Origin: Octopus sinensis
Taxonomy: Eukaryota
Direction of reading: 5' to 3'
Assembly: GCF_006345805.1 (NCBI RefSeq)
Contig: NC_042999.1
Coordinates: 162,440,001 to 162,504,000, forward strand
Length of the DNA stretch: 64,000 bases
Shown here one piece after another: positions 421-62,947 of the stretch. Both the position numbers and the translations under genes were made by a program. A model generated the notes under the pieces. That model ran no database searches. It worked only from the letters and a program-made list of their open reading frames with translations, and was not told where the DNA came from. Position 1 is the stretch's first letter. The number at the start of each line of letters is the position of its first letter.

Positions 421-483
421 TGATAAAATTCCGAGTTTCAGATGTTGGGGCGGAAACCCATGCCGGCATCTCTTCAGTTATCG
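421..483 (-). ncRNA. Type I hammerhead-like motif in the inverted PLE1 repeat
   Basis: Minus strand: gataa CTGAAGA gatg...catc t GAAA ctcggaa TT ttatc; helix III has a mismatch. Confidence 0.55.
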
Positions 484-775
484 GGCCATCAAAAAAAAAT
501 GTTATGGAAATGACCGTTAAAACAAAGGGAAATTACTGTGTGATTGAATGTTATTAAGACAAAAGAGCTATTAGTCAAAAGACCTCTAAGTAAGGGGAGG
601 GAGTAAAAATGTTCATAGTAATCACGTATGGTCTCATTCATTCTTTTGTTGTCTTGCCATTTCTATCAATAAGTTACCTCCCATACACCGCTATTTTTCC
701 GTAAGGGCCAATACAGCTTATTTTGGAAAATTGCCAGAAATCGGTTGAGATCTCTACCCCGCAGAAGAATTCAAT

Positions 776-2845
776 ATGGACGCCTATCACATCGATTATT
801 CTATGAAAGACATACCTATATGATCAAGGGAACTTATACTCTAAGAAACTTTTGGAGAAAATTACAGACCTTATTAAGAGCATGAGATGGAAAGCTTTCT
901 TTTATAACATGGAAGAGGACGCTACAGAGAATATATTCTATGGTATTAAATCTAAGAAATTCCTTTCCAAAAACCAAAGGCTTGGAAGACTTCGAAGCAG
1001 GCCTACTGAAGCTCAGAACAAAATAAAATTCCGTAAGTCTTTTAACACTTTCCAACAGAAACTGAAAACAGATATCAATTACATAAAGTGTTCCAAAAAA
1101 AAAAAAAAAAGCACTTTTTTCCAATAAAACCAAGAACTTATACTAGTAGAAAACAGCACATATTCACGATTTCTGCACAACAGCATGATCAATAATTACA
1201 CCAAGGCTAGGCCACAAACCTATAACAAAATTAATAAAGAAGCTAGCATTATCGCCACCAGACTTCAATTAGATAAAAAAAAATAGAGGTCCTCCCCAAA
1301 AAAGAGGCCTTTATAACTATCAAAGACTATAAAAACAACTTCCTATCTAATCCTAAATGTAGGCGTATTAACCCATTAAATCAGAACTTGGTATTATTAG
1401 TAAAGAAATTCTAGGAAAAATCAATGCGAAAGTCAGGAATGCCACTAGGTTAGTACAATGATCCAATAGTATAGAAGTCGTTGACTGGTTTAAAGCCATT
1501 AAGAATAAGAATAAAGCATGATTCATGCAATTCGATATTGTCAATTTTTATGCTTCTATCTCTAAGGAACTGCTAGACAAAGCCCTCACCTTCGCAAGCA
1601 AATTCATAGAAATCAGTACACAGGATAAGGACATAATTTTCCATGCTAGAAAGACTTTACTCTTCAGCAAGAACGCAGAGTTGGTCAAGACTACCGACAC
1701 AGAGGGTGCTTTCGATGTGAGCATGGGGTCATATGATGGAGCAGACATATGCAATCTTATTGGACTATTCCTACTCGATACGTTGAGCAAGACTTTTCCT
1801 GACTTATACTTCGCCGTTTACAAAGATGGTGCCCTAGCTTTAACTGCAAATACCAACGGACCAGCACAGGATCAGTTTAGGAAGGACATTATCCATTTGA
1901 TGAAAACTTTCGGTCTTAGCATAACTACAGACACCAACCTGACGGTTGTTAATTTGCTGAAGCCCAATGATAGACTTAGTTATATTAATATGGGTTCCTG
2001 CCATCCTCCCATAGTGTTTAAAAATTTAGTTAAAAACATTAGCAAAAGAATTTCTAGCCTCTCCTCCGATAGGGACATTTTTAATAGCGTTGCCCCAGTA
2101 TATAATAAGGCTCTAAAAGATAGAGGTTTTAGCAAGGAAATAACCTATACACCTGCTACCAGTCCAATAATAAAGAAAAGGAAGCATAGGAATAGGAAAA
2201 CTATCTGGTTCACAACCCCCTACTCACCCAAAGTGACCTTTAATATAGGCAAGTATTTCTTAGCACTGATAAACAGACATTTTCCAGTTGCCCATAGTTA
2301 CAGAAAGCTCTTCAATAGACAGAACTCAAAAATCAGTTTCAGTTCAACTACTAATTTTTAAAATATAATTCCACGCAACTCACAAAAACCACAATATGAA
2401 ACCAGCTGTTCATGCAGGGATAAAAGTTTGTGCCCACTAAATGGAGCTTGCATGTCCGAGACCATCATTCATGAAACCACCGTGGACTCTATATCCACTA
2501 AGGACATGGTTTCGATGAAGAAATAAGTGGGCCTTACAGAGGGTAATTTCAAGGCCAGGTCCAATAATCACACCTTGAGCTTCAGATACAGGGATAAAAG
2601 GAAAACAACAAAATTATCCAGTCATATATGGTCCTTAAAAGATAAAGGTATCAGTTACAACATCCATTGGAAGATCTTAGCCAAGTATACTTTAGCCCTA
2701 CACCAACGGCAGTGGAAAGTATGGTCTTTGTGATATGGAAAGATGGCTCTCCTGGAAAAGCAGCTTAGACTCCGCCACATGTCTAAATTCAAGAACTGAA
2801 CTTTTTGGATCATGTCCACATGTGGCTAAATATTTGTTACATTTT
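776..2845 (+). pseudogene. PLE reverse transcriptase / GIY-YIG endonuclease pseudogene (frameshifts, stops)
   Basis: Motifs MRWKAFF, FDIVNFY, MGSYDGADICNLIG, YKDG (decayed YRDD), SCHPP, IWF..P, CSCR...CPLNGAC, GLTEGNFKARSNNH, CPH. Confidence 0.85.
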
Positions 2846-3609
2846 TGATCCCTCCCAGATTACAGATAGGACTTGCTTTCTATATTGTGTCCACATACAA
2901 GCTTTTTATCTCTCTATACTTATATTTCTTATACATTTTTTACATATTTTTAGAGATATTGGTTTATAGTTTTATTGCTCATATATTTTTTTTTACACAT
3001 AGTTTTTCTGTATTCTACCTTCCACCCTGCATTTTTCCTGTGCGTATATAGACGTGTATATGGAATTTTTTGTGAGCATGTGTGGATGTGTGTGTGTGCA
3101 GGTATGTGTGTATATAGACGTGTGTGTGGGCGTGCATGCAAGTATGTGCGTATGTAGACGTGTTTTACACTTATTGCTTATTTTTTACACTTTTTTACAC
3201 ATTTTTCTGTATTTTGCCTTTAGCCCTGTATTTTCTTGTGCATGTGCATATATAGATGTGTGTATGAACCTTTTTGTGTGTGTGTGAGTGTGTGTGTGTG
3301 TGTGCATGTATGCAAGTATGTATATATATATTTTTTGGCGAATGTGTGGGTGAGCATATGTGTGTTTCAAGTGAGGGTGGATGAGTATAAACATATAGGC
3401 ACATGTACGTGGGTGTGCAGGCACGCATGTGTATGTATGGACATTTTCACTTACGCGATTACTATGAACATTTTTACTCTCTTACCTTTACTCCCACCCC
3501 TCACTTAGCGGTCAATTCTAATAGCTCTTTTGTCTTAATAATGGTCAATCACACAGTAATTTCCCTTTGTTTTAACGGTCATTTTCATAGCATTTTTTTT
3601 TTGATGGCC

Positions 3610-3672
3610 TGATAACTGAAGAGATGCCAGCATGGGTCTCCGCCCCGCCATCTGAAACTCGGAGTTTTATCA
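3610..3672 (+). ncRNA. Type I hammerhead-like motif in PLE1 3' repeat
   Basis: tgataa CTGAAGA gatg..catc t GAAA ctc-g-gag TT ttatca; helix I tgataa/ttatca. Confidence 0.7.
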
Positions 3673-3741
3673 TGGCTACCGAATAATTGTCACATATTAT
3701 ATTTACAGATATATATAACTGTTAAAAAGGACGTCAAACAT

Positions 3742-4295
3742 TAAGTTAAGTTAATTTTTTGGCTCAAAAAGCAAGGCCATGTAGGGGGACATGGAGTTAT
3801 GTACAGGGAGGGTGTTCTTGCAAAGAGTTCAGGACATTTCTGGTCAAGAGAGACTTTGAACCGAGCGGTCGTCGGCATCTTCACTATCTCATCCGGCAGC
3901 TTATTCCACGGATTCGCAACCCGGACGGAGAAATCTCCTCTCCTTCAATTGAGATGAAATCGTCGCAGATAGAGCTTTTCGGAGTGACCCCGCAGCCGAC
4001 ACTCTGGAGCAGGAGTGTAGAACAGCTCTTTTGAAACGTTACATATTCCGTTTATGATGTTGTGAGCGAGAATGAGATCACCATGGCGGTGGCGTTTTTC
4101 GAGAGAATAAAGGTCGAGCGTCTTCAGCCTTTCTTCATAAGACAAATGATTGAGACCAAGAACCATGCGGGTAGCCAGCTTCTGGACTCTTTCGAGATGA
4201 TGTATGTCTTTGAGGAGATAAGGAGAAGAGGCTTGAATCTCGTACTCCAATATGGGTCTCACCAGCATGACATAGAGCATTAAGGCAAGGCAAAC
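3742..4295 (-). mobile_element. CR1-group LINE, 5'-truncated 3' end
   Basis: LVRPILEY..SPY.KDI..LERVQKLATRMV.GL..LSYEERL..LDLYSLEKR..GDLI; tail (TTAAC)n; second tail copy at 61313-61577. Confidence 0.85.
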
Positions 4296-4333
4296 ATCTC
4301 AAGTGATATACAATATTATATGAAGAAATTCAA

Positions 4334-4389
4334 ATCTTACAGCTGTTTCTGGGATATCCCTGAGTATGGGATATTCCTTCATCAGAGAC
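4334..4389 (-). ncRNA. Type I hammerhead-like motif in an ORF-less, probably PLE-derived remnant (~4298-4660)
   Basis: Minus strand: gtct CTGATGA aggaatatccc-atactca-gggatatccca GAAA cagctg TA agat. Confidence 0.75.
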
Positions 4390-4686
4390 AAATAGAGGAA
4401 AAAAATATGGAAAATGAGAATGGTATATACCAATAAGATGACAACACAGAGGAAGGAGTAAAAGAATAAGGAGACGGAAAGAGAGAAGGAAAAAGAAGCA
4501 TAAAAGTTCATAGTCCAACTTTCCAAAGTTATAAAAACAAGAGTGCGAGTCCTTAGGTGCAATCCTGCATAGATCCATGAGCGTAAGTCCTAGCATACCT
4601 AATTCATGAGTGTAAGTCCTAGTGTACCTAATTCTTTAGATCACCTGTGAAATAAACCCCCATACTTTGTGTGTGTATATATATAT

Positions 4687-4990
4687 GCGCATTAGCCCAG
4701 TGGTTAGGGCAGCGGACTCGCAGTTGTAATATCGCGGTTTCGATTCCCAGACCGGGTGTTGTCAGTGTTTATTGAGCGTAAACACCCAAAGCCCCACGAG
4801 GCTCCGGCAGGGGGTGGTGGCGATCCGTCCTGTACTCTTTTGCCACAACTTTCTCTCACTCTTTCCTCTGATGGCCTGCTCGCTTAGCCAGCGGGGTGGC
4901 ATCACTTGAAGGCTAAAACAATGCAAAGCACATTGTGACCAGCGATGTGTAGCAATATCTGATAGCCTGGTCGGTCACGGTCACGGTGAT
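4687..4990 (+). mobile_element. SINE with family A head/body and a different 3' tail
   Basis: Matches family A to ~4862, then an unrelated tail ending ...CTGATAGCCTGGTCGGTCACGG. Confidence 0.8.
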
Positions 4991-5435
4991 ATATATATAT
5001 ATATAAAAATAGATAGATAAATAGATATTTAACTATAATTGTCACTAAACGTGACCAGGGTGTTAGAAACACATACACTGCTAGAAATAAGTGTTAAAAT
5101 GCTGTAATGCTGTAGTCAAAGCACATAATTGTATGCATATATACTGACAGGGACTCTAATCATCTGAAAACACCTTTCAAGAATACGGAATTCTCGAATG
5201 ACGTTTTTGGGCAATTACAGTCCATCAGTATATAAGTATACAATAATGTGGTTTGAGTACAACATTAAAGCATTTTAGCTGTTACTTCTAGCCATGTAGT
5301 CACACTTCGTGAGGAGTCTAGTTTTCCTTTTTGGTGAAACATTGCAAACTGCTGCCTACTTTAATTTTATTAATTGATTGATTGATTGATTGACAGACAG
5401 ACAAACACACACCTATATATATATATATATATATA

Positions 5436-5807
5436 TCTCTCTATATATAAACGGCAGTTTGTCTGTGCGTGTTTCTGTGTGTCTGTTTTCTCGTACCCTC
5501 ACCCTGACCACGGCTTTCAACCGATTCTGATGAAACTTGACACACGCATAGCCCAATGTCATAATTCAAAACTAACGCAGCGAAAATTTTGAAAAGTTCC
5601 CCCAGTTCTGAAAAAAATCGATAAATTCGACATGGGGTCGAGAATAAAAAAAAACAAACCACAGACTGTCTAGGGGACGCAACTCCACCTTTTTTTACTC
5701 TCAAAAAAAAATTTACCATCATTTTTTTTCCATTTTTTTGCTATTTTTTGGCTATAACTCTCTAAAAATGCTTTACAAACCCGAGCAACGCCGGGCGATA
5801 CTGCTAG
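5436..5807 (+). mobile_element. Non-autonomous Helitron
   Basis: 5' TC after A, GTCT/GT-rich head, subterminal hairpin CCCGAGCAACGCCGGG, 3' CTAG followed by T. Confidence 0.75.
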
Positions 5808-8868: not shown

Positions 8869-9576
8869 TTGTTAGAACTCAATATACGTATGCTTTAGAG
8901 CAAAGTAGTAGGTGAGTACAGATCTAGAAACTATACAGAAAAAGAATACTAATGGCAGTTCTTTTCAAAGTTACAACATTCCATAGAATTACTGTTTATA
9001 TTTGTTTCCTATAATGCTTAGCAGATGAGAAATACAATCTGGCAGTAAATAGAATGTGATCTATTACAAGGAGCTTTTACTGTTTGAGAAATTGTATTAT
9101 AGAGTGGAACCATTATGTTGTAGCTAGTTGAGAGCTGAGCAACTTGACCCGTAGACACAACACATGTATGAGCTGCTGACCCCTCAGCTCATTGTGAATA
9201 TCACCACTTTAGACAGTCATACATTCTAAAGACTGAGGAAGGGTAATACAGAGATATTAAATCTGGTAATCATGCCGTCTCAAAGATTGGCAGCAGCAAT
9301 TTTACCTATGCTAGTTTGGTGGTGACTTGGTTATTGCGCAAATGGTGGTGTTGGTGGGTGTGATAGTAGTTGTGTTAGTATGGTGGTAGTGTTAGCAGTG
9401 ATGGTATCAATTGTACTTCTGTCTGTGTTAATGGTGCTGCTATAGTAAGGGTAGCAACATTGCTGTCAATTACAATATTCTTGTCTGTTATTCTTAGTGG
9501 GTGCCTTTCTGATTTGCTTCGTAGCACTCAAAAGAAATAAAAAATAATTGTATTTGAAGAGTTTGTTGTAATTAGT

Positions 9577-9972
9577 GGAGGCGCAATGGCCCAGTGGTTA
9601 GGGCAGCGGACTCGCGGTCATAGGATCGCGGTCATAGGATCGCGGTTTCGATTCCCAGACCGGGCGTTGTGAGTGTTTATTGAGCGAAAACACCTAAAGC
9701 TCCACGCGGCTCCGGCAGGGGATGATGGTGATCCCTGCTGTACTCTTTCACCACAACTTTCTCTCACTCTTACTTCCTGTTTCTGTTGTACCTGTATTTC
9801 AAAGGGCCGGCCTTGTCACTCTCTGTGTCACGCTGAATATCCCCGAGAACTACGTTAAGGGTACACGTGTCTGTGGAGTGCTCAGCCACTTACACGTTAA
9901 TTTCACGAGCAGGCTGTTCCGTTGATTCGGATCAACCGGAACCCTCGTCGTCATAACCGACGGAGTGCTTCC
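9577..9972 (+). mobile_element. SINE family A, full length, with TSD
   Basis: tRNA-like head (TGGCCCAGTGG, GGTTTCGATTCC); TSD TGTTGTAATT at 9564-9573 and 9974-9983; 14-bp internal duplication CGCGGTCATAGGAT. Confidence 0.92.
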
Positions 9973-10526
9973 ATGTTGTAATTGTTATGTTTAGCTCCAA
10001 TTCTATTCGAATCAAGTAGGCTTATGATTGAAATCATTTCAGCCATAAACATGCTGCTTTTTAGGAGGAAACAAAGATTACATTATAGATTATGTCCCTC
10101 CTGCATTAAGACAGTGGAGTCTGATTTAAGGGAGATTTAACTGGTTGAGTCACTGTGTAATGGTTGCTTATAGGGGTGCCTTGCCTCTGTGACATTGCTA
10201 CCATTATTATCTTTATTGTAATAGGATATTTTATATATTATTACAGTAGCAGTAGAGCTCAAAGTTTTGATAGGCTATAAACTTGTGTGCATTTTCCAGA
10301 TTACTGTTGTTGTAGCAACTTGTTTCTTTTAATACTTGATGACAAGTTTTTTCAAAGCCTCAGTTCCCTCAGCTATGATGATCAGGAAACCTTTCTTTTG
10401 GATTAAATTGAATTGGCCGAGTATTCTATGTTAGGCATTCATCCATGAAAGGCTGATCTGCACCAATCATGCCATTTTAGATTTATGTTTCATGTAACAC
10501 TCCATGCATCTATGCAGCTCTCTTAA

Positions 10527-11534: not shown

Positions 11535-11882
11535 TTTCCCAAGATTCCTTTGAATATCAACTTGACTAAGTTCATTGCATCAAACAATTAAAACCCAATA
11601 ATGTTCTGGGCTATGACACATATTTCCTAACCTACAGTTAAGAAATTGTCTTATTTATAAGAAAATAACAAAGGTTTGCTGTACTGGGGTTTGATTGGTG
11701 CCAGGTTATTCCTCCGAAATGAATCGCTAAAGATAACTTTGTTTGCTGCTGCTCAGAGATGAGTGGAATCAGCACACACACACACACACACACATATATA
11801 GGAAGAGAGAGGAAGTGAGAGAGTCAGGGAAGAAAGAAGTTATATCATTGTCTTCCTTTCTCGGGATCTTTCCTTCTCCTAT

Positions 11883-11917
11883 GTTTCCGACGAAGAGCTC
11901 TGCTCGAAACGTCAAAC
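11883..11917 (+). ncRNA. Minimal hammerhead-like motif (core variant CCGACGA)
   Basis: gttt CCGACGA a gagc-tct-gctc GAAA cg TC aaac; lies in a pyrimidine-rich remnant ending at (TA)n. Confidence 0.6.
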
Positions 11918-12009
11918 CCTCCTTCTTCCCTTCTTTCCTGCATGTCCAATAATACTTTATTTGTTCCGCTTCCTTGCGTTGTTGTCTTTTTGTTTTCTTA
12001 TTTAGATTA

Positions 12010-12059
<50 letters not shown>

Positions 12060-14020: not shown

Positions 14021-15039
14021 TCTTTATTATATATATAAAACTGAGAATGTGTGTCTGTCTGTCTGTCTGTCTGCATGTTTCCCTAAAACTTGAGAACTAC
14101 ACAACCAATTTCATTCAAATTTTACACATGCCTTACTTAGGGTCTATGTAGTTTGATGGGCAAAAAAAAAATGTTCGACTTCTTGCCTAAAGCGAGCCCA
14201 TAGCAATATCATATCTTCTCCACTATTTCAGTATTACGTGTTAAAAGTGAAACAAAAACGTTTCTCTATTTTATGTCAGATACTTTCACTTTAACAATAA
14301 AAATAATAACAATTGAATTATATGTAGTAAGTAATAATTAAATTCAAACTAAAGTATAATATAATCGTAACATAACAAAAGTAAAAATAGCAATTGGTAT
14401 AAATTGCATCAATGATTTGAACTTGAATAAGTGGTTTCACATGAATGGGAATAAATTAAAAATAAAATTAGCGTACAGAAATAGTCCAGATGGATAATAA
14501 AAAATTAAATTAAAGAAAAGACTATTGTCTATAAAGTATACAATGTAGAGAAAAAAGATTTGCACACATGGAGGAAAGCACCTTCGAAAAGTGTCTTGGT
14601 GCGACTATGAAAGGTATCAGAGGCGGTAAATTCGCCACAATAGAAGCAAGGTTTGAGTCAACGGAGCATGCAAAGGGAGTACTCGACTCGAACTTGCAAA
14701 TGGGAAATATTTAATTTTTACCTTTATATCTGGGACGTAGGACGTGCCGGAAACAAATTTAAAATGCCCCCCACCCCCCGAAGTAGAGGTAGGCTAGATT
14801 GTAGCCACACTTCTAAACAAGAGGGAGGACAAGATACAATTGATTGAAATTACAAGAGACGGGCTAACAATTCCAGTCTGTTATATATTTTGAGTATTGT
14901 TATCACTAGCGATATCAAGATATAACTTTGTATTTTGTATTTTGTGTAGATGTATATATATATAGATGTACATGTAATATATACACATATATACATGCAC
15001 TAGCACTATGACCCGGCAACGACGGGTCTTTAATGCTAG
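14021..15039 (+). mobile_element. Non-autonomous Helitron carrying a captured coding fragment
   Basis: A|TC start, (GTCT)n, hairpin GACCCGGCAACGACGGGTC, CTAG|T; internally deleted relative of 40112-41820. Confidence 0.8.
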
Positions 15040-15199
15040 TATATATATATATCACCTATTGTAATGGAGACAGCCATTAACAATGTCCTTCTCTGACATC
15101 TACCTCACTCAGAAATCAAAATGGTAGACATTAATGACTACCATTTTGATTCCTGGTTTACATAGATCCAGATTCACTAGTAACCTACTCCATTGTTAT

Positions 15200-39623: not shown

Positions 39624-39681
<58 letters not shown>

Positions 39682-40043: not shown

Positions 40044-40093
<50 letters not shown>

Positions 40094-41845: not shown

Positions 41846-41892
<47 letters not shown>

Positions 41893-42063: not shown

Positions 42064-42065
42064 AT

Positions 42066-47102: not shown

Positions 47103-47789
47103 TCATCTACTACCACAACAATTGCCAATACCACATTCAAAACCACAATTAGACTACCACTACCACCACTACTATCACTTCACACTAGTTCTTCACTACT
47201 GCACAGAACATTTGTTTGACGCTATTTCTATAAAGAGCAAACAGCCAATATATGTCACAAGTGACAATATACACTTGAGTGACATTAAAGTTACTTGGAG
47301 ACAGAGCACATTTAAAACAGACACTTAAAAGATGAAATATTGATTTCTCATACAGACACAAGGTCACAACAGATTTATAATAGAGTTAAATGACAGGGAT
47401 ATTTTAGTACTGCAAAGTGATAGTTAAGCTTGTAAGTAAAAGTAAACTAAATCTTGCAATGTAGTTTCAATTCTTGTTTGAACCCTTTCAATACATTGGC
47501 TCATTGTGCTTGCAGTTTCTGACAATAGTCAATAGTCTAAGCAAAGTAAATCTCAGTGAAATGATAATAATAAAAATAATAATAATAATATAATAATAAT
47601 AATAATAACAATAAAATCGAATCAGATACCATTGCGATACATACTTAATAGATGATCCTTTCTGTGGCCAGTTACTATTGTCTGACTGCTTGTTTACCTA
47701 TGATGCAGAAGCTTCTCATTGGAATAAGAGGAAAGCATCAATATATGATAGAAGGATTTAAGTAGGATTGAGGAAGTAAGGAGTGGTAA

Positions 47790-50545
47790 TATGAGACTCA
47801 ATGAAAGAGATGAGAATTACATGAATAAGAAATACCACCAGGTGGATAAGAGAACTCTAGTTATATTGGATATGTTAAAACAAAAGATTAAAGCAAATGC
47901 AGTTAAGATCAAAAGATACAAGGGAAGATGTCTACAGTTTAAACAAAATCAACTGTTTAGAATAAATCAGAAGCTAGGTTCCCAACTTCTGGCTGAAACA
48001 TCTCACCAGTACCCATACTTCCATAGTAGAAGTATTAAATTGATTAATAAGCAAGCCAGAATCAACACCAAACTGGATGCTAGAAGGACAAACCACATTA
48101 AAGTCCCAAAAACAAAGACACTGTACACCCACAAAATTATAGGCCAATAACATGCCTATCAACATCCTACAAAACCCTCACATCAGTTATATATAACTGG
48201 TTTATAAAACAAATGGAAAATAAAGTTTTACCAGAAGAACAAAAAGGGTGCTGGAGAGGGATGTATGGTTGTAAGGAGTAACTTCTGGTAAACCAAGCCA
48301 TTATAGAGGACTGTAAGAAGAGAAAGACAAACCTGAACATGACTTGGAGTAATTACCATAAAGCATTTGACAGTGTTCCATACTCGTGTATACTGGAATC
48401 TCTCCATACAAATAAAGTGGCTCGAATACTACTAAAATATATCAAACATGTAATGGCAAACTGGAATACCACTATAACACAGAAAAATGAATCACAACTT
48501 ATTAAAACCTACCCTATGCCCATAACTAGAGGGATTTTCCAAGGAGACTTGCTGTCATCTCTGCTTATCTGCCTTGCTCTGACTCCCCTAACAAACTTGT
48601 AAAATGAAACTACCACTGGTTATAGATACTATGGACAAACAATAAACCATCTCCCGTATACGGATGATTTAAGCGTTTTCATTAAAAATACCACAGAACA
48701 GAAAAACCTTCTAAAATTGTCCATAGTTTCAGCAACGACATTGGGATGAGCATGGAGCTGAACAAATGTGCCAAAGGGACACTGAGAAGAGGCAAATTAA
48801 TCAGCACTGAACACACTGCACTCGACATAGACACAGAAATCACAGAATTAGATCACGATTGCCCATACAAATATCTAGGGATAGATGAAACAGCGAAAAT
48901 ACAACACACAGGAATGAAAGGGAAAGTTAGAAGAGAGTATTACAGAAGAGTTAGACTAATATTAAACACTGAACTCAATGCTAAAAATAAGATAATAGGG
49001 ATAAACACACTAACCATACCAGTAATAAATTACAGCTTTAACACAACAAACTGGAAGATCAGTGAATTGAAAAACTTATATAGAAAAACCAGAAAATTAT
49101 TAACAGCATACTGAAGTATCTCCTCAAAGTAGACACAGATAGAATATATCTGTTTGTGAAAAGGAGGCTATGACCAAACATAGAAAGTGAACTACTATAA
49201 AATAACAACAGTTGGACTAGAAAAGTACTTAGAAACAAAAAGTGGAAGATGTAATAGAGCAACATGAGAAAAATAAAATGTTTTTCTCTATACACAAGGA
49301 GGCAACAAAATACAAAACAGTGGCTGTGTGGTAAGTAGCTTGCTAACCAACCACATGGTTCTGGGTTCAGTCCCACTGCGTGGCACCTTGGGCAAGTGTC
49401 TTCTGCTATAGCCCCGGGCCAACCAATGCCTTGTGAGTGGATTTGGTAGACGGAAACTGAAAGAAGCCTGTCATATATATGTATATATATGTATGTGTGT
49501 GTGTGTGTGTTTGTGTGTCTGTGATTGTCCCCCTAGCATTGCTTGACAACCGATGCTGTTGTGTTTACGTCCCCGTCACTTAGCGGTTCGGCAAAAGAGA
49601 CCAATAGAATAAGTACTGGGCTTACAAAGAATAAGTCCCGGGGTCGATTTGCTTAACTAAAGGCGGTGCTCCAGCATGGCCGCAGTCGAATGACTGAAAC
49701 AAGTAAAAGAGTAAAGAGTACACTGATACACTGACCTCAGATGACAATATAGCAAAAATGGCCAAAGAGACAAAAAACAATATGAAAACAGAACTACAAA
49801 ACCTACTAAAGAAGAAATGGAGAGAAAAATCACTCCATATTCAATACCCTGCAAGGCTTGACAGAGAAGAGTGAGCCTAAGTAAAAGCCAACAATGGCTC
49901 AAAAGCCCTAGGCTAAAAATGGAAGGACTAATTCTCACTGTACAAGACCAATACCTGACCACAAACAACTATAAAAGCAAAATAATGAAAACGGGCCCTC
50001 ACACCAAATGCAGAAGATGCAACCAGCACAATGAGACAGTTGACCACATCATCTCTGGCTGTCCAGACCCTGCCAAATCTGAATATATATATATATATAT
50101 ATACAGACATGACCAAGTAAGTAGTTATGTCCACTGGACAATATACCAACACTACAACATAAAAACTTACAATAAATAATATAAACATGTGTCAAACAAG
50201 ATACATGACAATAACCAGGCCACAATCATCTGAGATATGCCTGTTCAGACTGACAAAGAAATAAAAGCTAATTGCCCCGGCATAATAATACTGAAAGACA
50301 TTGCTGTCCCTTCTGACCAAAATAATACCCAAAAAGAAGTGGAGAAATTGTCAAAGAATAAAGATTTTGAAATTGAAATATTCAAGATGTGAGGCATGAA
50401 GATAAAAACAATACCAGTAATAAGTGGAGCTTTGGGTATGATAAAAGAATGTAGAAGCTATACCTGGACCCTCAACACTACACCCTATGCAAAAAATAGC
50501 CCCACTAGGAACAGCCCACATCCTACACACCACACTATCAATCCA
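47790..50545 (+). mobile_element. R4/Dong-like (R2-group, REL endonuclease) LINE, degraded
   Basis: NYHKAFDSVP, GIFQGDLLS, HLPYTDDL, YKYLGI, KCRRC...ETVDHIISGCP, RHDQV, DIAVP.D...KEVEK; (TAA)n just upstream at 47565-47610. Confidence 0.85.
49320..49719 (+). mobile_element. SINE family B nested in the R4/Dong-like LINE
   Basis: Colinear with the 8451 copy. Confidence 0.88.
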
Positions 50546-50812: not shown

Positions 50813-51411
50813 CAACAAAAGACTGCACCAAACTGATGCAATACAATACTGAGAAGAGTTTGCACTCCCCCAACAACAAAAAAAGGAACACACAATGTGG
50901 CACACATCCCAGTAATACAGAGTAATACAGCAGGTGATGCAGTTGAAATTTACTTGAAACTACCAAACATTAAATAATATTTTCCAGCATAATTACAAAA
51001 TTACAAATCTTATAGAAGAGAACAGGTGATTAATTCAGCTTTATTACTTAACAGGTACTCCTTTTATTAATTCCTGAAGAACAAAAAAAAAATAAATAAC
51101 ATTGGCAGGATTTGAATTCAGAATATAAAAGGATATGACTAAAACCTAAAAAGTAGAAAGAAGCCTGATTTAAAAAAACAAAAACACCTAATAAGGAATA
51201 TTTTAATTTTTGTGTATGAACAGACCTCTAGCTTCATGGTTTTACCACAAGATTAACAATTTACCTAAATATCTTGTATTCTTATGAATGGCTTCCCTTG
51301 AAGCCAATTTACTTCGATAAGCTTATTTTATAATATACTTTTATATATTTTTCACGTTCTTTGAAATTTTGTTTTTTATATTTTTTTACTTTAATGTATT
51401 TATCTTTGGTT

Positions 51412-51784
51412 GGAAGCACTCCGTCGGTTACGACGACGAGGGTTCCGGTTGATCCGAATCAACGGAACAGCCTGCTCGTGAAATTAACATGTAAGTGGCT
51501 GAGCACTCCACAGACACGTGTACCCTTAACGTAGTTCTCAGGGATATTCAGCATGACACAGAGAGTGACAAGGCTGGCCCTTTGAAATACAGGTACAACA
51601 GAAACAGGAAGTAAGAGTGAGAGAAAGTTGTGGTGAAAGAGTACAGCAGGGATCACTACCATCCCCGCTGGAGCCTCGTGGAGCTTTAGGTGTTTTCGTT
51701 CAATAAACACTCACAACGCCCGGTCTGGGAATCGAAACCGCGATCCTACGACCGCTGCCCTAACCACAGGGTCATTGCGCCTCC
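51412..51784 (-). mobile_element. SINE family A
   Basis: TSD TGTATTTATCT at 51395-51405 and 51785-51795. Confidence 0.92.
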
Positions 51785-51899
51785 TGTATTTATCTATAGC
51801 TTCTTTCTCTGAATTTGTATTTTGGACCACCATGAATTGTTCTGAAGATTAATCTGTTAGTTTACTTTTCAGCACATTTTACATATGGGTGTACGCATA

Positions 51900-52872
51900 C
51901 AGTAATACCTCCCTTTATGAAGACCCACTTTTATGATAAATGTAAAAAGATTAAACAGTGGATAAAGCCTTGGAAATTTTTCAAGCACAAGATCCAAATT
52001 TTGAACAAAGTGCAAAAGTTTCTACTACCATAACAAGTGCTTCTGCATGTCACCAAGAAATTTATAGAGAGTGAAAAAGAGCTTCTAAGTAAACAACTCT
52101 AGACTTATTTTTTGTTTAAATATCTTTATGTCCATCTACAAGTGCTTGTGGATCGGCAATTGTGTCTACAAATGATGGTTTGCGTGAGTATAGTGCAAGT
52201 GAAAGTGATTCAAAAAGCAATTATAATAATAATATTTTTTATTATAAATGAACTTGATATTCTTTTTACTTTACATAAAATATCCTTTATATTCTACTGT
52301 TGTTTTATTGTCATTTATTTATGAGTATTATAAATTTTAAAGGTAAAATATTTTTCGGGGAACAAATTATGATTTATAACATTGCTACTATGGGAAATTA
52401 TTGCTCTGCTTTACAAGTTTTCACTTTACAAGTGGTCTCCAGGAATGAATTAATTCATATATCGAGGCATTAGGAAGCACTCCATCGGTTACGACGACGA
52501 GGGTTCCGGTTGATCCGATCAACGGAACAGCCTGCTCGTGAAATTAACGTGTAAGTGGCTGAGCACTCCACAGACACGTGTACCCTTAACGTAGTTCTCG
52601 GGGATATATTCAGCGTGACACAGAGAGTGACAAGGCCGGCCCTTTGAAATACAGGTACAACAGAAACAGGAAGTAAGAGTGAGAGAAAGTTGTGGTGAAA
52701 GAGTACAGCAGGGATCACCACCATCCCTGCCGGAGCCTCGTGGAGCTTTTAGGTGTTTTCGCTCAATAAACACTCACAACGCCCGGTCTGGGAATCGAAA
52801 CTGCGATCCTACGACCGCGAGTCCACTGCCCTAACCACTGGGCCATTGCGCCTCCACATCGAGGCATTGCTG
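51900..52872 (+). mobile_element. Tigger/pogo-like internally deleted DNA transposon
   Basis: TA|CAGTAATACCTC..TATGAA ... TTCATATATCGAGGCATT[SINE]GCTG|TA; remnant DPNFEQSAKV...CHQEIYRE*KR..K*TTLD resembles the Tigger C-terminus. Confidence 0.7.
52473..52855 (-). mobile_element. SINE family A inserted in the Tigger right TIR
   Basis: TSD ATCGAGGCATT at 52461-52471 and 52858-52868. Confidence 0.92.
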
Positions 52873-54835: not shown

Positions 54836-56844
54836 TGTGTGTGTGTGTGTGCATGGTTACACATGTATATGCAAAAGCTCATAAGGATCATGTGCCAAAT
54901 ATGAACTAAGTATGTCTCCTATCACACTTTAGTAACTGTAAAAAAAAGATGTAAACATAATTACAATTCTGAAAACAACAATGGAATGGCAGAAATAGGT
55001 AATGCTCTTCATTATTTAGTTGTATTTTTATATTCAAATTCCAATGAGGTCATCTTTGCCTTCCAAAATCAATAAAATAAATGCCAGTCAAATACTGGAG
55101 TTGATTTAATTTCCACCTTTAAAATTTCTGACTGCATGCCTAATTTACAAATCATCATCATCATCATTGTTATTATCATTTAAGATGTTGCACAGTATCC
55201 AATATCATGATGTTGTTGAAGGCAGAGAGCTGGTAGAATCATTAGAATACAAGACAAAACGCTTAGCAGCACTTTGTCCATCTTTATGTTCTGAGTGCTG
55301 GGGTCGATTTATTTGACTAAACCCTTCGTGGCCATGAAAACAAGCAAAAGGTGAAAGACAAAAATATTACTTATTTTTTCATCTTAGAAAAGGAAGGATA
55401 ACATCCATGACCTTTTCAGAGCCCCAAGATTTGTGAGAGGTTAGTAGGAAGGTCTCCTCATTGTGGAGACCTAGCCTGAATGCTTGCAACAGAGTGAACT
55501 CAGCTAAAGATACCCAAGAACCAGGTGGTGGTGTTAAATCAAATGACAGAGTAAGTCTTAACTGAGCAAAGGGTGGTCAACTGAAAGGAAGAATACACCA
55601 TTGGATCTAAATGCCATATAGTACTTTAGTTTTCTAGGTTCAAATCTCACTCTTATCACCTTTACCTTGCATTCTAAGAGGGTTAATAAAAATTTATTCA
55701 CTTTGTGACAGCTAATATGAAAAATAATTCATTTAGAAAGGTGGAATAAATACAAAAGAGATTTAAAATCCATAAAGGTTTTCTGTAATTCCGCTAAATT
55801 CAAATCCCAGGGATTTTTTTTACTTTCTATACTTTAGAGATAGTAAGTGACAAAGCATAAGAAGAGGCTAATAAGATAAAATATTGCTTTTACCCACTAG
55901 AAAACAAACCAACTATCTGTGAGAGGGAGGGATCATGTGTCAAAGAAAGAACAACATTTATGTTACACACTAATTATTCCTATATTCCTGACTCTACTCA
56001 AGAAATAAATATCAGTGGAATTAGTTACATTCCTTATGTGCATGAGGAAGGCGGGGCTGTAAATTACCATATATATATATATGTATATTCATATATACAC
56101 ACACACACATACATATCTTCATTATAAGATAAGTTAGAAAGAGAATACCCTAAAATAAATATAGCAGTTGTTTATTTTTTTGTGTGTAACAACAAATTTA
56201 GAGAAATATCATTGGTTTCATATCTAGCATGAACCAGACATATCATCAGTTTCTCTAAACAATAGCTGTTCTCTGTAAAAGATGTTTTTAAAAACAGATG
56301 AATGCCAGTGATAGTTGAAGGAAAATTCCCTATAAAAATTATGGCCAGGCGAGTTATCATCCTTCGCTTGATAGCTAGGTTTTCCTATTTTGAAGTAAAA
56401 ATTTCCGAAAATGTGGAAAACTCCCCACAGCTTCCGTCCTGAAGTTTAGGTGGCCTTCCGGCTCATGTGAGTTCATTAGGATGATATATCTTTCTGCCAT
56501 ACGCAATTTACATAGCTTTGATCTATTGCAATAGCGTCTGCAAGTTTCTAATAATTTCTACCTGATGTTAAAGTGCATATGATCATCCTTTAGGCACTAC
56601 ATGCATGCTGCAAGTGTCATTATACTGCGTCTCTGCAGCACCCTGAAAGAAGATTTGTGGTTGTTCAGGCGAATTTTAAATTTGGATTCACAAGATCCAA
56701 GATAAATTTGAGTGTGTGTCCCTGTGTTTGCATTGTTGTTACTGTTATTTGTACTGTTTCTGTTTGAGGATTCCTTTCCTTGGTACACTGTAGCCTCACT
56801 GTTACATCAGCTGTCTACTGGGCATTCATTTCTAATCCAGTATA

Positions 56845-57070: not shown

Positions 57071-57383
57071 TGTGGTTTAGGAGTGCTAAGTCATTTTTTC
57101 CTAACATTGGGTGTGCAACTGAAAGATATCCTTAAATTTTGTGTTAAAGATCTTTCTGCATTTGTGTGACTGCGTGAAATGCTTATCCACCAACCTAAGA
57201 AAAATCTTACCTACGCATGTCCAGACGTTTAGTGAGTAGGGGAGTGAGTGTGAACCATAAAGTCTTGCAGCGACATTTCGTGTTATGGTTGCTTGATCCT
57301 GGTGTATATACTATATGGTCTTTGAACCTGCTGGCCACTAGCACCTCATTGTAAGCAGGAGCCGCTGCATTGAAATTATCTTT

Positions 57384-57604
57384 CATCATCATCATCACCA
57401 TCATCGTTTAACGTCTGTTTTCCGCACTAGCATGGGTTGGACGGTTCGACCGGGGTCTGGGAAGCCAGGGGCTGCACCAGGCTCCAGTCTGATCTGGCAG
57501 AGTTTCTACAGCTGGATGCCCTTCCTAACGCCAACTACTCCGAGAGTGTAGTGGGTGCTTTTTACGTGCCACCTGCACAGGTGCCAGGGTGTCCGGCATC
57601 GGCC
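57384..57604 (-). mobile_element. RTE 3' tail nested in PLE3
   Basis: Homologous to 12484-12680; splits the PLE peptide SSNK|DNF. Confidence 0.85.
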
Positions 57605-58432
57605 TTTATTTGAAGATAAGTTCAAAATCCATTTACTAATTTTTATTAGGTTTCTGAACACTATGGGTGGGTGGGCGGCAGGAAGCTGTGCTAATGTATG
57701 ATGGTCTATCATTCAGCTTGCGACATGGTCTGTAGGTGCCACTGTCTAAATCAAGTGTGACATCCAAGAAGTTCACCATGAAGTTAGTCTCTATGGTGAT
57801 TTTAAGACCAAGGTTGTTAAGGGTGTGTATAATGTCTTTCCTAAAAGTGGTAGTAATAGTACATTTATGATCATTTCTGTTTACATCATCAGAATGCAGA
57901 GTCATATGTAGAGATAAGAAAAGCAAAAGACATAGGAATACATTGGTAACGAGAATAAAGACAATGGTGAGTCTTAGATTACAGCAGATTTCTTAGTTGA
58001 TAATTCTGCTGCGAAGTAGATGAAGGATGGAGGTTGTTTTGATCTGAAGTACCAAGTTTAACTAAGCACATATTTTCCACGTGTTTATTCTGGCTAGACT
58101 TTTCACCTGCGGTGTAAAGAAAAGGGATTGACTCTAACTCATGGTGAAAAGGGAGTTAACTCTATCCGGATTACTCAGTCCGGGGTGAGTAAGGAATTTA
58201 TGTGTCTTTGTAGGAAGTTCATAGTAATGGAAGCCCTGTGTAGGTGTAAAATAATTTATTATGGGGTGTGTAAAGCGAGTGGGGGTTTGGAGGTCAATGC
58301 TTGCATGTAAGTAGTTTAAGTGGTTCCCGGCTAAATGAGATTATTTAGGTAATCATTAGGAACGCCTTTGGTTTTAACCATCCCTTAGAAGTTTTAAACA
58401 CCTCTAACTTATACCTATATATGTATATATAT

Positions 58433-58491: not shown

Positions 58492-58614
58492 CACATGACA
58501 AGGCCTAGCGCTATATATAAGTACCTCATTTTCAACTGCCTATTACCTCTATACACTTGACTAATATAAGCAGAATGAGATGCTTTTATCTATAGGCTGA
58601 AACAGCTGTAAGTG
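58492..58614 (+). ncRNA. Degenerate copy of the long-stem-II hammerhead
   Basis: cac ATGACAA ggcct [insert homologous to 39766-39858] aggct GAAA cagctg TA agtg; CUGANGA core mutated. Confidence 0.5.
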
Positions 58615-58768
58615 ATTTTAATAATTTATATTCATGTTTTTTAATAATTGCTTTTATTCATATTTTATATGCATAGAATAATATACTATATGTATGTATG
58701 TTATTATTTACCCGCTCTCCTATGCTTCGTGCCGTTTCCCCTACGTATGTCGTTGTCTTACATAGGTA

Positions 58769-59718
58769 TTGTATTCACATCCGTCTTGTGCGTTCACATT
58801 CCTGTCTTCTACCAAGAAATCTAATGCTTACAGCTTAGTTTTTTTTCTTGGGGCTGGCCGAGTTGGAGCAAATATCAGAATTGAACAGCCGAAATTTGCT
58901 ATGATGATTCGGTGTCTGACTGAAGATTGAAGGCTTCGAATGATTTGTCTGTGTTCCGTGTTCGTCCCTTCCTGTATTTCACGTTCATTATATATAAAAA
59001 CATTCATTCTTATATTATTGCGGCGTTACGTGCACCCCCCCGTTTGTTTGTCCAATTTTAAACCCTGCACGACTTCTATACACAGTCTTTTACTACCCGC
59101 CATTGCTTCTTCACCAAACTTTTTGGCGCCTTCCGATTCTTCCCCTCTCTTCCTCCCATCCTCCTCCCCTCTTCCTCCCATCCTCCTTAATCCCTTCTTT
59201 CTCCTTCTCTCTTGGTCACTGATTCTGTCCCCTGCCTTCCACCCTCTTTGATTCCCTCTCTCTCTGTCTCTCTTTCTCTCTCTCCTGACCTGCTGCTTCT
59301 TCAACCATTCTGTTGGCCTTCGTATCTCGACCAACATGTGTCCCCGCTACCGAAATGGTAATTATTTCTACGCCAGCTGCTATGTTGTTGTTTTGTCTCA
59401 TTGGTCTAAAGTCGTATGACAACCACCGTTATATACATTTTGTTTTTTCATTACTGTTTTCAATTTCGTTTTCGTCTCTTGTATTCACATCCGTCTTGTG
59501 CGTTCACATTCCTGTCTTCTACCAAGAAATCTAATGCTTACAGCTTAGTTTTTTTTCTTGGGGCTGGCCGAGTTGGAGCAAATATCAGAATTGAACAGCC
59601 GAAATTTGCTATGATGATTCGGTGTCTGACTGAAGATTGAAGGCTTCGAATGATTTGTCTGTGTTCCGTGTTCGTCCCTTCCTGTATTTCACGTTCATTA
59701 TATATAAAAACATTCATT
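58769..59718. repeat. Two apparently identical 240-bp direct repeats (58769-59008, 59479-59718) around a 470-bp pyrimidine-rich core
   Basis: Direct sequence comparison. Confidence 0.88.
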
Positions 59719-59811
59719 TATATATATATATATATATATATATAGGTATATGTATATATATATATAGGTATATGTGTATATATATATAGGTATATGTGTA
59801 TATATATATAG

Positions 59812-59852: not shown

Positions 59853-60504
59853 TAGATATATATATACACGCACACACATACATAATATATATACACACAT
59901 ATGTAAAAAGGTTGAATTAGATTCATCCTTTAATTTGGGCTTTTCCAAAAAAAGATTTCTGATATAGACACTTCATATTTTGCTGGTAGCTTACTGGCGT
60001 AAAAATTGCGAATAGGAAAATAATACTTGTATATGGTGTGTTGTGAATTTATGGAAAGAAATCCCATAAAACTCAACAATTTTGATAAAAACGAAGAGAA
60101 GATGTTAAAATATATAAGAGAATTTTAATTCATGCAGACGATCGTTTCATACAGCGATATAAAAATCATGCAAATTCATGGTTGAATTGCATTAATTAAA
60201 TTAATTAGATTAAATTAAATCAATTATATATCAATGTACTCTTCAGTGCAAGAAGTATACAGAAATTTTTTTTTACAAAGGAATTGAGAAAGGAAAAAGC
60301 AGAATAGGATCTAAGAGATTCATATTTATCCTTATGAGAAAGGAAGATATGTGTGAGTCCAGTTAGGTATTAACTTAAACTAAAGGCTATAACGGTTATT
60401 TGAAAATATAAGTGAGAGAGGTTTTAGAGATGTTCCCTCTATAGAAGAGTAAGGAGATACGAAATTCTAACTCCAAATAAGTCGTGTAGGGAAAAAATTG
60501 TATA

Positions 60505-60610: not shown

Positions 60611-60802
60611 ATGGTTAGAAATAATACTTAGTGTGGTATATATTTTTTAAAAATTTAACACATGAGAATAAAGTGAAACTAGAGGAGATAGTGTATGAAG
60701 GGCTAGTGGATTGTTAACATAAACAAGTGTTATAGAAGTAACAATGGATTAAAGAGAGAATAAGATGCATAAAATGGACTAGTGTGTGTATAAGAACTAA
60801 TA

Positions 60803-61062
60803 CATCTCTCACTAACCATTCATCTATCCCTAGTTTCCTCATTGACCACCAGATAAGGGATCGGGGGACCCTGTCAAAGGCTTTCTCCATGTCAACGAAA
60901 GCCAGGTACAGAGGTTTATCTTTGGCTAGGTATTTCTCCTGCAGCTGTTTTACCAGAAATATAGCATCAGTGGTGCTTTTCCCTGGCATGAACCCAAACT
61001 GCATCTCATCTAAACTGAGATGCAGTTTGGGTTTGTGCCAGGGAAAAGCACCACTGATGCTA
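60803..61062 (-). mobile_element. RTE RT fragment ending in a 47-bp fold-back
   Basis: QFGFMPGKSTTDAIF...AFVDMEKAFDRVPR; 60962-61008 is inverted at 61016-61062. Confidence 0.85.
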
Positions 61063-61249
61063 CAATCTCCTATAAAAACTTACAAGGAAAAAATTGTTAG
61101 TATATTTACTTATATGTGAGTTGAGGAATATCTGCACATTAGTATACATAGATAGAGGAATTCCAGTTGTTTTTTGATTAGGGAATACATAAAGAAAGGA
61201 ACACCGTATACAAGTATATATACTCATACTGGTGCAAAGGGAGAAAAAA

Positions 61250-62254: not shown

Positions 62255-62477
62255 TATATATATATATATATTATATATGTGTATATATATATTTATATGT
62301 CCTATATTTTTCTCTGGTGTGTCCTGTACACAATGTGTATACTTTTGGTATTTTGTCATGTACTTATCTCGTGTGTTTACGTACTTTTCACTCGTTGGCA
62401 ATGTCCTGTACACAATGTGTACTTTTTATTTTATTCATAATCAAACGCCATGCAGCCTTGTCCATAGTAAGTTCTTA

Positions 62478-62514
<37 letters not shown>

Positions 62515-62523
62515 TAATAAACA

Positions 62524-62643
62524 CAGGCATGACTGTGTGGTAAGATGCTTGCTTCCCAACCGCATGGTTCTGGGTTTAGCCCCGTGTGGCACTTTGGGTA
62601 AGTGCCTTCCGCTATAGCCATGGGCTGACCAAAGCCTTGTGAG
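62524..62643 (+). mobile_element. SINE family B 5' fragment
   Basis: Head sequence, truncated after CCTTGTGAGT. Confidence 0.75.
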
Positions 62644-62867
62644 TAATTTCTCGCTATAATCGCAGTTCACCTATTGCAGCTTAAGCTTATATCGATTCCT
62701 CCGTGGTATTGTTTTGCGTTTGTAATAAAATAAATATATACAAATTATAAAAATAATCTTTTTAAAATATACAGTACGGTACTGTTTCTACTTTGTAGAT
62801 TTTCACCTATCACAGGGGCTTTTGGAACATAACACCTGCAATAGCCAAGGGATTATTGTGTGTGTGC

Positions 62868-62903
<36 letters not shown>

Positions 62904-62910
62904 TTTATTT

Positions 62911-62947
62911 TGTTACTCTGAGTTTCTCGTTGCCGTTCATCAGACAG
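62911..62947 (-). ncRNA. Type I hammerhead-like motif (PLE2 family)
   Basis: Core identical to 46927-46963. Confidence 0.72.

Follow-up and report, generated by a model that had tools for sequence, protein, structure and literature searches.

What are the hammerhead-like motifs scattered over this 64,000-nucleotide stretch of Octopus sinensis DNA (here, the window), what carries them, and how might they cleave? A sequence-only reading had listed nine motifs of at least six designs, described helix III as palindromic in all of them, and attributed them to type I hammerheads of Penelope-like elements (PLEs). All nine were found, with positions and strands correctly given, and they fall into six designs (A to F). 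Eight carry an intact CUGANGA/GAAA/UH core in type I order, with C3 at 477(-), 3616(+), 4385(-), 11887(+, U4C), 39754(+), 42059(-), 46931(+) and 62943(-); the core variant noted at 11883 is this U4C change. The motif at 58492, already suspected of decay, has lost its core, C3 and G8 both reading A at 58495(+), and an inverted element tip stands in place of the 5' strand of its helix I. The palindrome is perfect in eight of the nine, the 421 copy having one mismatch (CUCGGAA). Core halves lie about 100 nt apart in the 39750 and 58492 motifs. The list proved incomplete, as three more intact-core motifs lie at 56249(-), 57892(-) and 60246(-); the window also holds a decayed motif at 30425(-) and a 5' half alone at 39087(-). 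The motifs, their host remnants and two PLE reading frames are:

420 to 628: inverted 3'-end piece holding the design A copy of 421 to 485
421 to 485, minus: inverted copy of the design A hammerhead; C3 of the core at 477, cut predicted after 427; a single mismatch in helix III (CUCGGAA)
837 to 2760, plus: decayed, putatively Hydra-clade PLE ORF (family A) with RT, thumb, CxCx5C linker and C-terminal GIY-YIG; stops and frameshifts; 38% to the family F ORF across 489 aa
3608 to 3674, plus: design A hammerhead, 3' end of the element with the decayed ORF 837 to 2760; core 3616, predicted cut after 3666; helix III CUC-G-GAG
4278 to 4579: 300-nt PLE 3' remnant, host of the design B motif
4334 to 4389, minus: design B hammerhead; core 4385, predicted cut after 4338; helix III CAGCUG
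11867 to 12055: 190-nt remnant of a Neptune-like PLE, host of the design C motif
11883 to 11917, plus: design C hammerhead; U4C core 11887, predicted cut after 11913; helix III CG
30368 to 30431, minus: decayed hammerhead, read by eye and passing neither structural descriptor (below); core 30425; helix III arms UCAC/GUGA; helix II base mismatched; beside Hydra-type RT fragments 30684 to 31571 (plus)
39027 to 39516, minus: inverted partner of the design D insertion; motif 5' half only, core 39087
39516 to 40046: host remnant of the design D motif, ending at (TA)n
39750 to 39879, plus: design D hammerhead with extended helix II, its core halves 103 nt apart; core 39754, predicted cut after 39875; helix III CAGCUG
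41821 to 42113: 290-nt remnant of a Neptune-like PLE, host of the design E motif
42020 to 42064, minus: design E hammerhead; core 42059, predicted cut after 42025; helix III GUAC
44882 to 45814, plus: young, putatively Hydra-clade PLE ORF of family F, 5'-truncated; 3' 311 codons, 96% to the full 727-aa frame of locus L073
46927 to 46964, plus: design F hammerhead; core 46931, predicted cut after 46960; helix III CUC-A-GAG; tail to 47072, then (TA)n
56199 to 56257, minus: extra hammerhead; core 56249; helix I of 8 pairs; helix III CCAAUGA (family form CCA-N-UGG)
57860 to 57898, minus: extra hammerhead; core 57892; helix III UGAUCA; immediately upstream of Hydra-type RT fragments 57842 to 57137 (minus)
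58495 to 58614, plus: design D copy, decayed; C3 and G8 are altered and the inversion junction has cost it the 5' strand of helix I; 3' half intact
60133 to 60250, minus: extra hammerhead; core 60246; 91 nt between core halves; helix III CGAUCG
62911 to 62947, minus: design F hammerhead; core 62943, predicted cut after 62914; ends a 3' UTR running to 64000

All six designs could be traced to ORF-bearing PLE families, the weakest link being the subfamily of the 4334 motif (B), and the attribution to PLEs thus held. Full-length copies elsewhere in the genome carry the motif at both ends, on the same strand and 3.3-6.3 kb apart; this layout, a requirement of the published dimer model, was seen in F, E, C and a family denoted J, and a 3' motif only in A, B and D. 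In family F, five copies have an open frame of 727-766 aa between same-strand motifs 3.33-3.37 kb apart, the motif lies downstream in 11 of 12 loci chosen by protein alone, and the intact-looking 727-aa frames of young elements are 94-98% alike. Family E shows motif, ORFs and motif over 4.27 kb, with ORFs matching RVT_1 and GIY-YIG, and family C a 6.27 kb unit with RT. Hydra-type ORF parts precede a ~3 kb 3' UTR in four of nine family D stretches. For B, the endonuclease lies immediately upstream in locus L141, and in L289 (56% alike to L141) other repeats intervene. The 62911 motif has its ORF and an inverted partner immediately outside the window (locus L077).

Named by motifs and not by a tree with reference PLEs, the six designs would be the 3' ends of four Hydra-clade and two Neptune-like families. 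The RT reads DKT in F (L078) and J (L338) and NKT in decayed A; the exact CxCx5C linker with a C-terminal GIY-YIG lacking CCHH is present in A, B, D and J; and copies with a TA run after the tail number 45 of 53 in F, 25 of 31 in A, 72 of 78 in D and 48 of 50 in J, (TA)n being common in the genome. Together with the hammerhead itself, these are features given for the Hydra clade in the available text of Craig et al. 2021 (PMC8557442). That text describes few families, mostly <3 kb, whereas here there are at least five, with 384-5,659 motif matches each and a unit length of 3.35 kb in F and 4.6 kb in J; moreover, D has Asn-rich insertions besides its long 3' UTR, and the first linker motif of F is CNF, not CxC. 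Family E shows DKG, a Cx2-5CxxC linker plus a C-terminal GIY-YIG that has CCHH, and family C DKG and RT only, its endonuclease being decayed; the label Neptune-like covers features that do not separate Neptune from Nematis. Pfam gave no match for the Hydra ORFs and, on 42 window ORFs, nothing but RVT_1 and zf-RVT fragments of other retroelements. No Hydra loci were found in viral contigs. A protein search gave 120 homologues; in a separate set of seven Hydra loci from other sources, four have the same layout with other palindromes.

Seven exact patterns gave 36,122 matches genome-wide:

Design A: 384 matches, reversed control 0
Design B: 2,024 matches, reversed control 1
Design C: 23,485 matches, reversed control 278
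Design D: 1,018 matches, reversed control 0
Design E: 1,150 matches, reversed control 2
Design F: 5,659 matches, reversed control 0
Family J: 2,402 matches, reversed control 0

The U4C core occurs in 12 of 25 E loci and is common in C. A loose pattern gave 661 matches versus 184 in the control, too noisy for counting families, and relatives of the 57892 and 60246 motifs were absent from the genome loci examined. At least 14 helix III palindromes occur in the genome. Helix III alone was rejected as a family code, CUC-N-GAG, CAGCUG, CAAUUG, CGAUCG, CG and CCA-N-UGG each being common to unlike designs.

Our overall reading, to which we assign a probability of roughly 0.8, is that the motifs come from six PLE families whose 3' ends (pseudo-LTRs) carry type I hammerhead sequences, that the insertion ends in the window are truncated and likely inactive, and that full-length copies, with a motif at both ends, would undergo cleavage by paired copies and then reverse transcription. 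Given the observed both-end layout, a full-length element transcript would bear the motif twice on the same strand. The two copies would likely pair through the palindromic helix III, exchanging helix I strands, and each core would cut the UH site of the other. Unit-length RNA would be released and may be circularised, probably aided by the element's own protein, as papers on other PLEs suggest. Reverse transcription would likely begin at either of two points downstream of the cut site, on a template that may be uncut or re-ligated RNA, and the new copy would insert at (TA)n, where insertion ends are observed. In most families the tails have two end points, like the two RT start sites reported in the available part of PMC11167929. 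Truncation at the 5' end and inversion could then spread lone or back-to-back motifs such as those in the window. Dimeric minimal hammerheads cut weakly in vitro (PMC4209133), and the U4C core, a natural variant of repeat-type hammerheads, is less active in vitro according to the available text of PMC3088659.

The motifs may instead have the same identity and another job, as a protein-assisted or late-acting ribozyme or as a PLE passenger, with cutting not needed for transposition. We consider this possible, if on the unlikely side. In the available part of the anole PLE study (PMC11167929) the hammerhead cut only with protein, was dispensable for insertion in vitro, mutants inserting normally, and RNA-seq reads with an end at the site were absent; and in the available text of PMC8557442 Naiads spread without canonical motifs, its authors raising the idea of hammerheads parasitising PLEs. 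The insertions studied here also retain the uncut site: (TA)n lies within 30 nt of it in 1 of 284 copies, so that the predicted cleavage does not set the insertion 3' end. Against a dispensable role, families with protein pieces only ~20-55% alike retain the core and its pairing, and so do the D subfamilies, which argues for selection on the fold in transposing copies.

For the paired-copy reading, the dimer is the best structural model of the motifs. With helix III left unconstrained, 51 of 60 distinct matches were palindromic to the centre, 6 nearly so and 3 otherwise (reversed control 1), at loci mostly picked by palindromic patterns. Computed helix III energies were +2.1 to +6.4 kcal/mol for monomer hairpins, where these were possible at all, and -1.2 to -11.1 for duplexes. 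In family J, pair 15.3-16.3 is G·U in 46, A-U in 26, G-C in 26, other in 2 and A·C in none of 100 copies counted by eye (16/9/5 for G·U/A-U/G-C by script in 30 loci), a series of three subfamily states rather than 100 independent events. Since this pair would close a 2-nt loop in a monomer, the series fits the dimer only. That the longer designs (CUC-N-GAG, CAGCUG) act as monomers with a helix III of 2-3 bp, making the dimer unneeded, is improbable in our judgement: A and F can form a 3-bp stem with a 3-nt loop, and monomeric hammerheads of invertebrate retrozymes cut with a helix III of 2 bp (available text of PMC7229834), but besides the positive hairpin energies and the inner J pair, the palindrome takes in the loop positions too in 14 designs, and a useful monomer stem is impossible for CG and GUAC.

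Helix II is of ordinary size (up to ~8 bp) in A, B, C, E and F and not in D (88-109 nt inside the helix) or the 60246 motif. Covariation across family copies, a check proposed with the sequence-only reading, was found for D: in an alignment of 25 related rows, 85.2% of pairs were kept versus 79.9% after shuffling and 29-40% in slid controls, and both partners differed in 12 of 30 pairs, but two of five measures did not go beyond shuffles (35 and 30 of 500). RNAalifold on this alignment gave local hairpins only and missed the hammerhead fold. For the insert by itself, folding z-scores had a median of -1.4, with 9 of 25 below -2 and +0.2 for the window copy; the D arm is thus better supported by covariation than by folding stability. 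An intron inside this helix, prompted by a GT...branch-like...YAG/G order in the window copy, was rejected: the 3' AG is missing in 12 of 25 aligned relatives (10 end in CAT, 2 in ATG), the context of the GT is not constant, the insert shows hairpin covariation, and no splice joint turned up in contigs of four runs. As a separate observation, contigs had greater depth over the F motif and tail; since contigs cannot reveal RNA ends or levels, this was given no weight. We found in print neither a covarying helix II of ~100 nt (1,018 copies) nor the A-U/G·U/G-C helix III series. One speculative proposal, which we think doubtful, is that the 60-100 nt helix II of Hydra-PLE hammerheads serves as a conserved arm on which the element's own RT-endonuclease docks, thereby licensing cleavage of the dimer, while helices III and I would form a family-specific pairing address keeping dozens of co-resident families from cross-cutting.

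The five motifs said to lack an adjacent ORF (4334, 11883, 39750, 42021 and 58492) do lack one, and are 5'-truncated 3' ends of coding elements. A usable same-strand partner is absent for every window copy, so they are most likely fossils, and the window motifs are likely truncated, inactive PLE insertion ends. Back-to-back pairs are an insertion form already published for PLEs; in the first 100 J-pattern matches, counted by eye, 26 pairs diverge within 6 kb, 4 are direct and none converge. Taken by itself, the window is a motif-rich stretch of ordinary PLE debris. The suggestion that the ORF-less motifs are non-autonomous retrozymes (tandem short repeats making small circular RNAs) did not survive for these nine and seems very improbable: such arrays exist elsewhere in the genome (597-nt units in L236, 545-nt units in L291), and a 2026 preprint, in its available part, derives them from PLE ends (10.64898/2026.07.22.740005), but none of the nine lies in a tandem array and all match 3' ends of coding PLE families.

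The 4334 and 39750 motifs, both CAGCUG, had also been proposed to heterodimerise, cutting each other in trans. On paper they are the sole compatible pair of 36, with helix III 8/8 paired and helix I of 4-5 pairs in both directions; the incompatibility of the other 35 is expected for unlike sequences and is no sign of selection. But they lie on opposite strands 35 kb apart, B and D designs never occur on the same strand within 5 kb among the loci examined, trans pairing of rare transcripts faces competition from the cis partner, and the match may reflect shared ancestry or chance. We hold such an encounter highly unlikely.

A strict structural descriptor matched the window eight times (six of the nine and two new motifs), versus 0.005 times on average over 200 dinucleotide shuffles (a single match in one of them, none in the other 199) and none in the reversed window. 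A looser one gave nine matches, adding 477, 4385 and 56249 and missing both 46927-type copies (reversed window 0). This confirmed the proposed descriptor search, with both descriptors built after the motifs were known and thus tuned to them; a covariance-model search, also proposed, was negative, Rfam giving no hammerhead family among 109 matches at E<=10. Chance matching of a short core in AT-rich repetitive DNA, where bare CUGANGA..GAAA occurs 14 times in the window, several times without helices, is refuted by the shuffle controls, by genome copies in thousands with controls near zero, and by helix covariation.

The motifs are the known minimal hammerhead of PLEs; published work already covers the class, its palindromes, the dimer model and the presence of many families per genome. 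Besides Cervera and de la Pena 2014, Lunse et al. 2017 is, by its title, on such minimal hammerheads. As in the metazoan PLE pseudo-LTRs of Cervera 2014 (PMC4209133), the motifs are type I with short helix I and palindromic helix III, most designs have an additional base before helix II, many families share a genome, two copies flank the RT-EN ORF, and copies are mostly lone or on opposite strands, from truncated PLEs. There helix II has 6-8 bp, whereas D, J and 60246 have 60-103 nt between core halves, and the palindromes here reach 8-11 nt. Palindromic helix III was published by Perreault 2011 (PMC3088659), where, in the available text, loop III of repeat-type hammerheads pairs fully in the dimer, up to 10 bp (Fig. 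S8 legend), unlike here without a tie to PLE clades. Non-LTR retrozymes, in the available parts of Cervera and de la Pena 2020 (PMC7229834) and the Li et al. 2026 preprint, share type I order, weak helix III, dimer activity and very high copy numbers (a coral with >6,000 motifs of 16 families, axolotl with 126,247), but theirs are tandem 170-400 nt non-coding units, whereas the nine of the window are scattered ends of coding elements.

The long-armed designs show that standard descriptors undercount these ribozymes. The spacer in published core searches was 7-17 nt, and a further part of the speculative docking-arm proposal is that such motifs may therefore also hide in PLEs called ribozyme-less. 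With young Hydra-clade elements bearing the motif at both ends, this genome offers material on what PLE hammerheads do, and its natural subfamily series (A-U/G·U/G-C in helix III, U4 versus C4, short versus 100-nt helix II) provide ready pairs for tests of the dimer model and of the role of the protein.

(TA)n and interspersed repeats abound in the window (G000:C3:162440001-162504000 of the 2.72-Gb animal genome), and the genome's repeat landscape looks octopus-like. All nine hammerhead-like sites claimed by the sequence-only reading are present in it, eight of them with an intact core:

421(-) and 3610(+), design A, helix III CUC-N-GAG (one mismatch at 421, CUCGGAA)
4334(-), design B, helix III CAGCUG
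11883(+), design C, helix III CG
39750(+), helix III CAGCUG, and 58492(+), both design D
42021(-), design E
46927(+) and 62911(-), design F, helix III CUC-N-GAG

At 58492, core residues C3 and G8 are both altered and an inverted element tip replaces the 5' helix I strand. A strict structural descriptor matched the window 8 times (mean of 0.005 in 200 shuffles, 0 in the reversed window) and a looser one 9 times (0 in the reversed window), both having been composed once the motifs were already known. Combined, they pick out 11 motifs with an intact core, of which 56249, 57892 and 60246 are new. An Rfam search did not find hammerhead families in the window. The motifs are real and more numerous than first listed. 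Two more decayed Hydra-type RT remnants, at 30684-31571(+) and 57137-57842(-), adjoin the extra motifs 30425 (decayed) and 57892, respectively.

We counted genome matches to exact patterns, each against a reversed control, including a further Penelope-like element (PLE) family, J, which is absent from the window.

Genome matches per pattern, followed by matches of the reversed control
Design B: 2,024; 1
CG helix III (several families, C among them): 23,485; 278
Design D, narrow: 345; 0
Design D, wide: 1,018; 0
Design E: 1,150; 2
Design A: 384; 0
Design F: 5,659; 0
Family J: 2,402; 0

The seven main patterns total 36,122 matches, from which 0.85 would be expected in 64 kb. The window holds 8, its flanks (60 kb) none, and arbitrary stretches totalling 90 kb one. 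With the general descriptor the flanks contain 6 motifs, mostly of other designs, and the arbitrary stretches 0. The region is thus above the genome average in motifs, yet the motif is common throughout the genome. Among the genome matches listed, designs C, D, E and F each have the U4C core variant as a recurring subfamily state.

Families A, B, D, F and J carry the Hydra-clade marks, as given in the accessible part of Craig et al. (bioRxiv 10.1101/2021.04.23.441226; PMC8557442). In family F, window ORF 44882-45814 is the 3' portion of a 727-aa frame; of 127 matches scored, the majority were 90-98% alike. Two same-strand motifs flank this frame at 3.33-3.37 kb spacing in five examined copies, and a motif lies downstream in 11 of 12 loci selected on the protein alone. 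For copy 62911, both an ORF of its own and an inverted partner lie immediately beyond the window (L077). For the main ORF, a bivalve protein (43%) is the only species-named homologue among 120 listed. The A motifs 421(-) and 3610(+) are back-to-back ends flanking a decayed ORF, 38% like F. Hydra-type ORF parts were met upstream of a ~3 kb 3' UTR in 4 of 9 D stretches walked, and an endonuclease upstream of B only in L141 and L289, among 14 stretches examined. The J unit measures 4.63 kb with a motif at each end. For the five ORF-less window motifs, the match to PLE 3' ends spans only 120-530 nt. In the Hydra-type ORFs of D and J, long Asn-rich insertions separate RT, thumb and endonuclease (L268:3247-5163; L271:2881-4090; L338:3192-3970). 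Of 7 Hydra loci taken from other sources, 4 are laid out like these families, with different palindromes. Five loci in records titled bacterial MAGs (L360-L364) contain PLE ORFs of Hydra type, in three cases flanked by hammerheads; these ORFs are likely animal DNA within bacterial bins.

Families E (unit 4.27 kb) and C (6.27 kb) both have DKG-type RTs and appear Neptune-like. An E element (L146:2136-6408) has a separate 467-aa frame (stop to stop) upstream of its 728-aa RT-endonuclease frame. Other repeats in the window are:

58710-59725, PLE-like remnant with a minus-strand GIY-YIG-like fragment near 58747 and a 247-nt direct repeat (58769-59015, 59479-59725)
1-298, 4687-4868, 9575-9974, 19313-19695, 51407-51785 and 52473-52857, a SINE-like repeat of 300-400 nt present six times, most copies being 93-97% alike
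14028-15052 and 40114-41833 (the latter interrupted), ~1-kb repeat starting at (TA)n, 90-92% alike
37915-38163, MITE-like inverted repeat of 117 nt, near-perfect, around a spacer of 15 nt
47752-50179 and 60717-61079, other non-LTR retroelement fragments (RVT_1, zf-RVT matches)

Intact elements have two motifs on one strand, the arrangement that the dimer model in the accessible part of PMC4209133 requires. In a scan without a palindrome requirement, over loci chiefly obtained through palindromic patterns, 51 of the 60 distinct matches had a helix III whose palindrome extends to the centre, and a catalogue over 1.29 Mb holds at least 14 distinct helix III palindromes (0 in reversed sequence). 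Computed energies predict favourable helix III duplexes and unfavourable monomer hairpins. In the first 100 of 2,402 J matches, from a pattern with four inner positions unconstrained, pair 15.3-16.3 by eye was G·U in 46, A-U in 26, G-C in 26, other in 2 and A·C in 0; 30 loci gave 16/9/5 (G·U/A-U/G-C). This pair is impossible in a monomer, and its variation represents three subfamily states.

Among 284 copies inspected, (TA)n lies at most 30 nt from the predicted cut site in just one, insertions extending beyond the site, and in most families there are two end points. Both features agree with the anole PLE, which, in the accessible part of PMC11167929, has two RT start sites and an uncut template, its cleavage being protein-dependent and dispensable for insertion. 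The template is therefore likely uncut or circular. The sole same-strand pair in the window joins 39754 and the broken 58495 (core C3 positions), 18.7 kb apart; no window motif is left with a same-strand partner that it could use, so the window copies most likely are fossils.

That 4334 and 39750 might heterodimerise, as suggested, is possible on paper. Taking a dimer as helix III pairing plus exchange of helix I strands, we scored both-helix compatibility, and among nine window designs B-D alone was compatible (1 of 36 pairs); A and F have helix III in common and zero helix I pairs. However, 35 kb separates the two sites, their strands are opposite, and B and D never occurred on one strand within 5 kb among the loci examined. 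Protein similarity between B and D is low (19-29%, over pieces that are short and decayed). A B/D heterodimer is possible and unsupported.

Design D holds 88-109 nt within helix II in 65 distinct copies. In an alignment of 25 (mean identity 72%), tested against a structure named from single folds, 85.2% of cells were paired versus 79.9% in shuffled and 29-40% in slid controls; both sides changed in 12 of 30 pairs, the rows being related. Two of five measures fell within the range of shuffles, RNAalifold did not recover the arm from this alignment, and folding z-scores were modest. A reading of an intron in this helix was tried and failed. Long arms also occur in J (60 nt), at 60246 (91 nt) and in a retrozyme-like tandem array (L236:6013-8962; G000:C11:44206500-44216499) whose 597-nt units all carry a hammerhead with a long arm and helix III CGUACG. 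A second retrozyme-like array, on the minus strand (L291:7256-9516; G000:C1:79803000-79812999), has units of ~545 nt, each with a hammerhead-like motif that has a U4C core and CGUACG after GAAA. Craig et al., in the part accessible, used a core search spacer of 7-17 nt and mentioned, for Naiads, half-cores at 35-50 nt. We found no published description of long helix II arms in the accessible literature; such arms may appear in the supplementary material of Cervera 2014, Craig 2021 or Perreault 2011.

In their accessible portions, PMC4209133 describes the class, the presence of many families in one genome, copies that stand alone or on opposite strands, and the dimer model; PMC3088659 a loop III palindrome giving a 10-bp dimer stem, and the U4C variant; PMC7229834 per-genome counts from thousands to >100,000; the review PMC6765202 summarises dimer studies; and a 2026 preprint connects retrozymes with PLE ends. 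A recent octopus repeat annotation (PMC13282606) lists Penelope-like families, and the words 'hammerhead', 'ribozyme' and 'Hydra' are absent from its main text as accessible. The window motifs belong to a known class, the minimal hammerheads of PLEs, with a long-armed variant.
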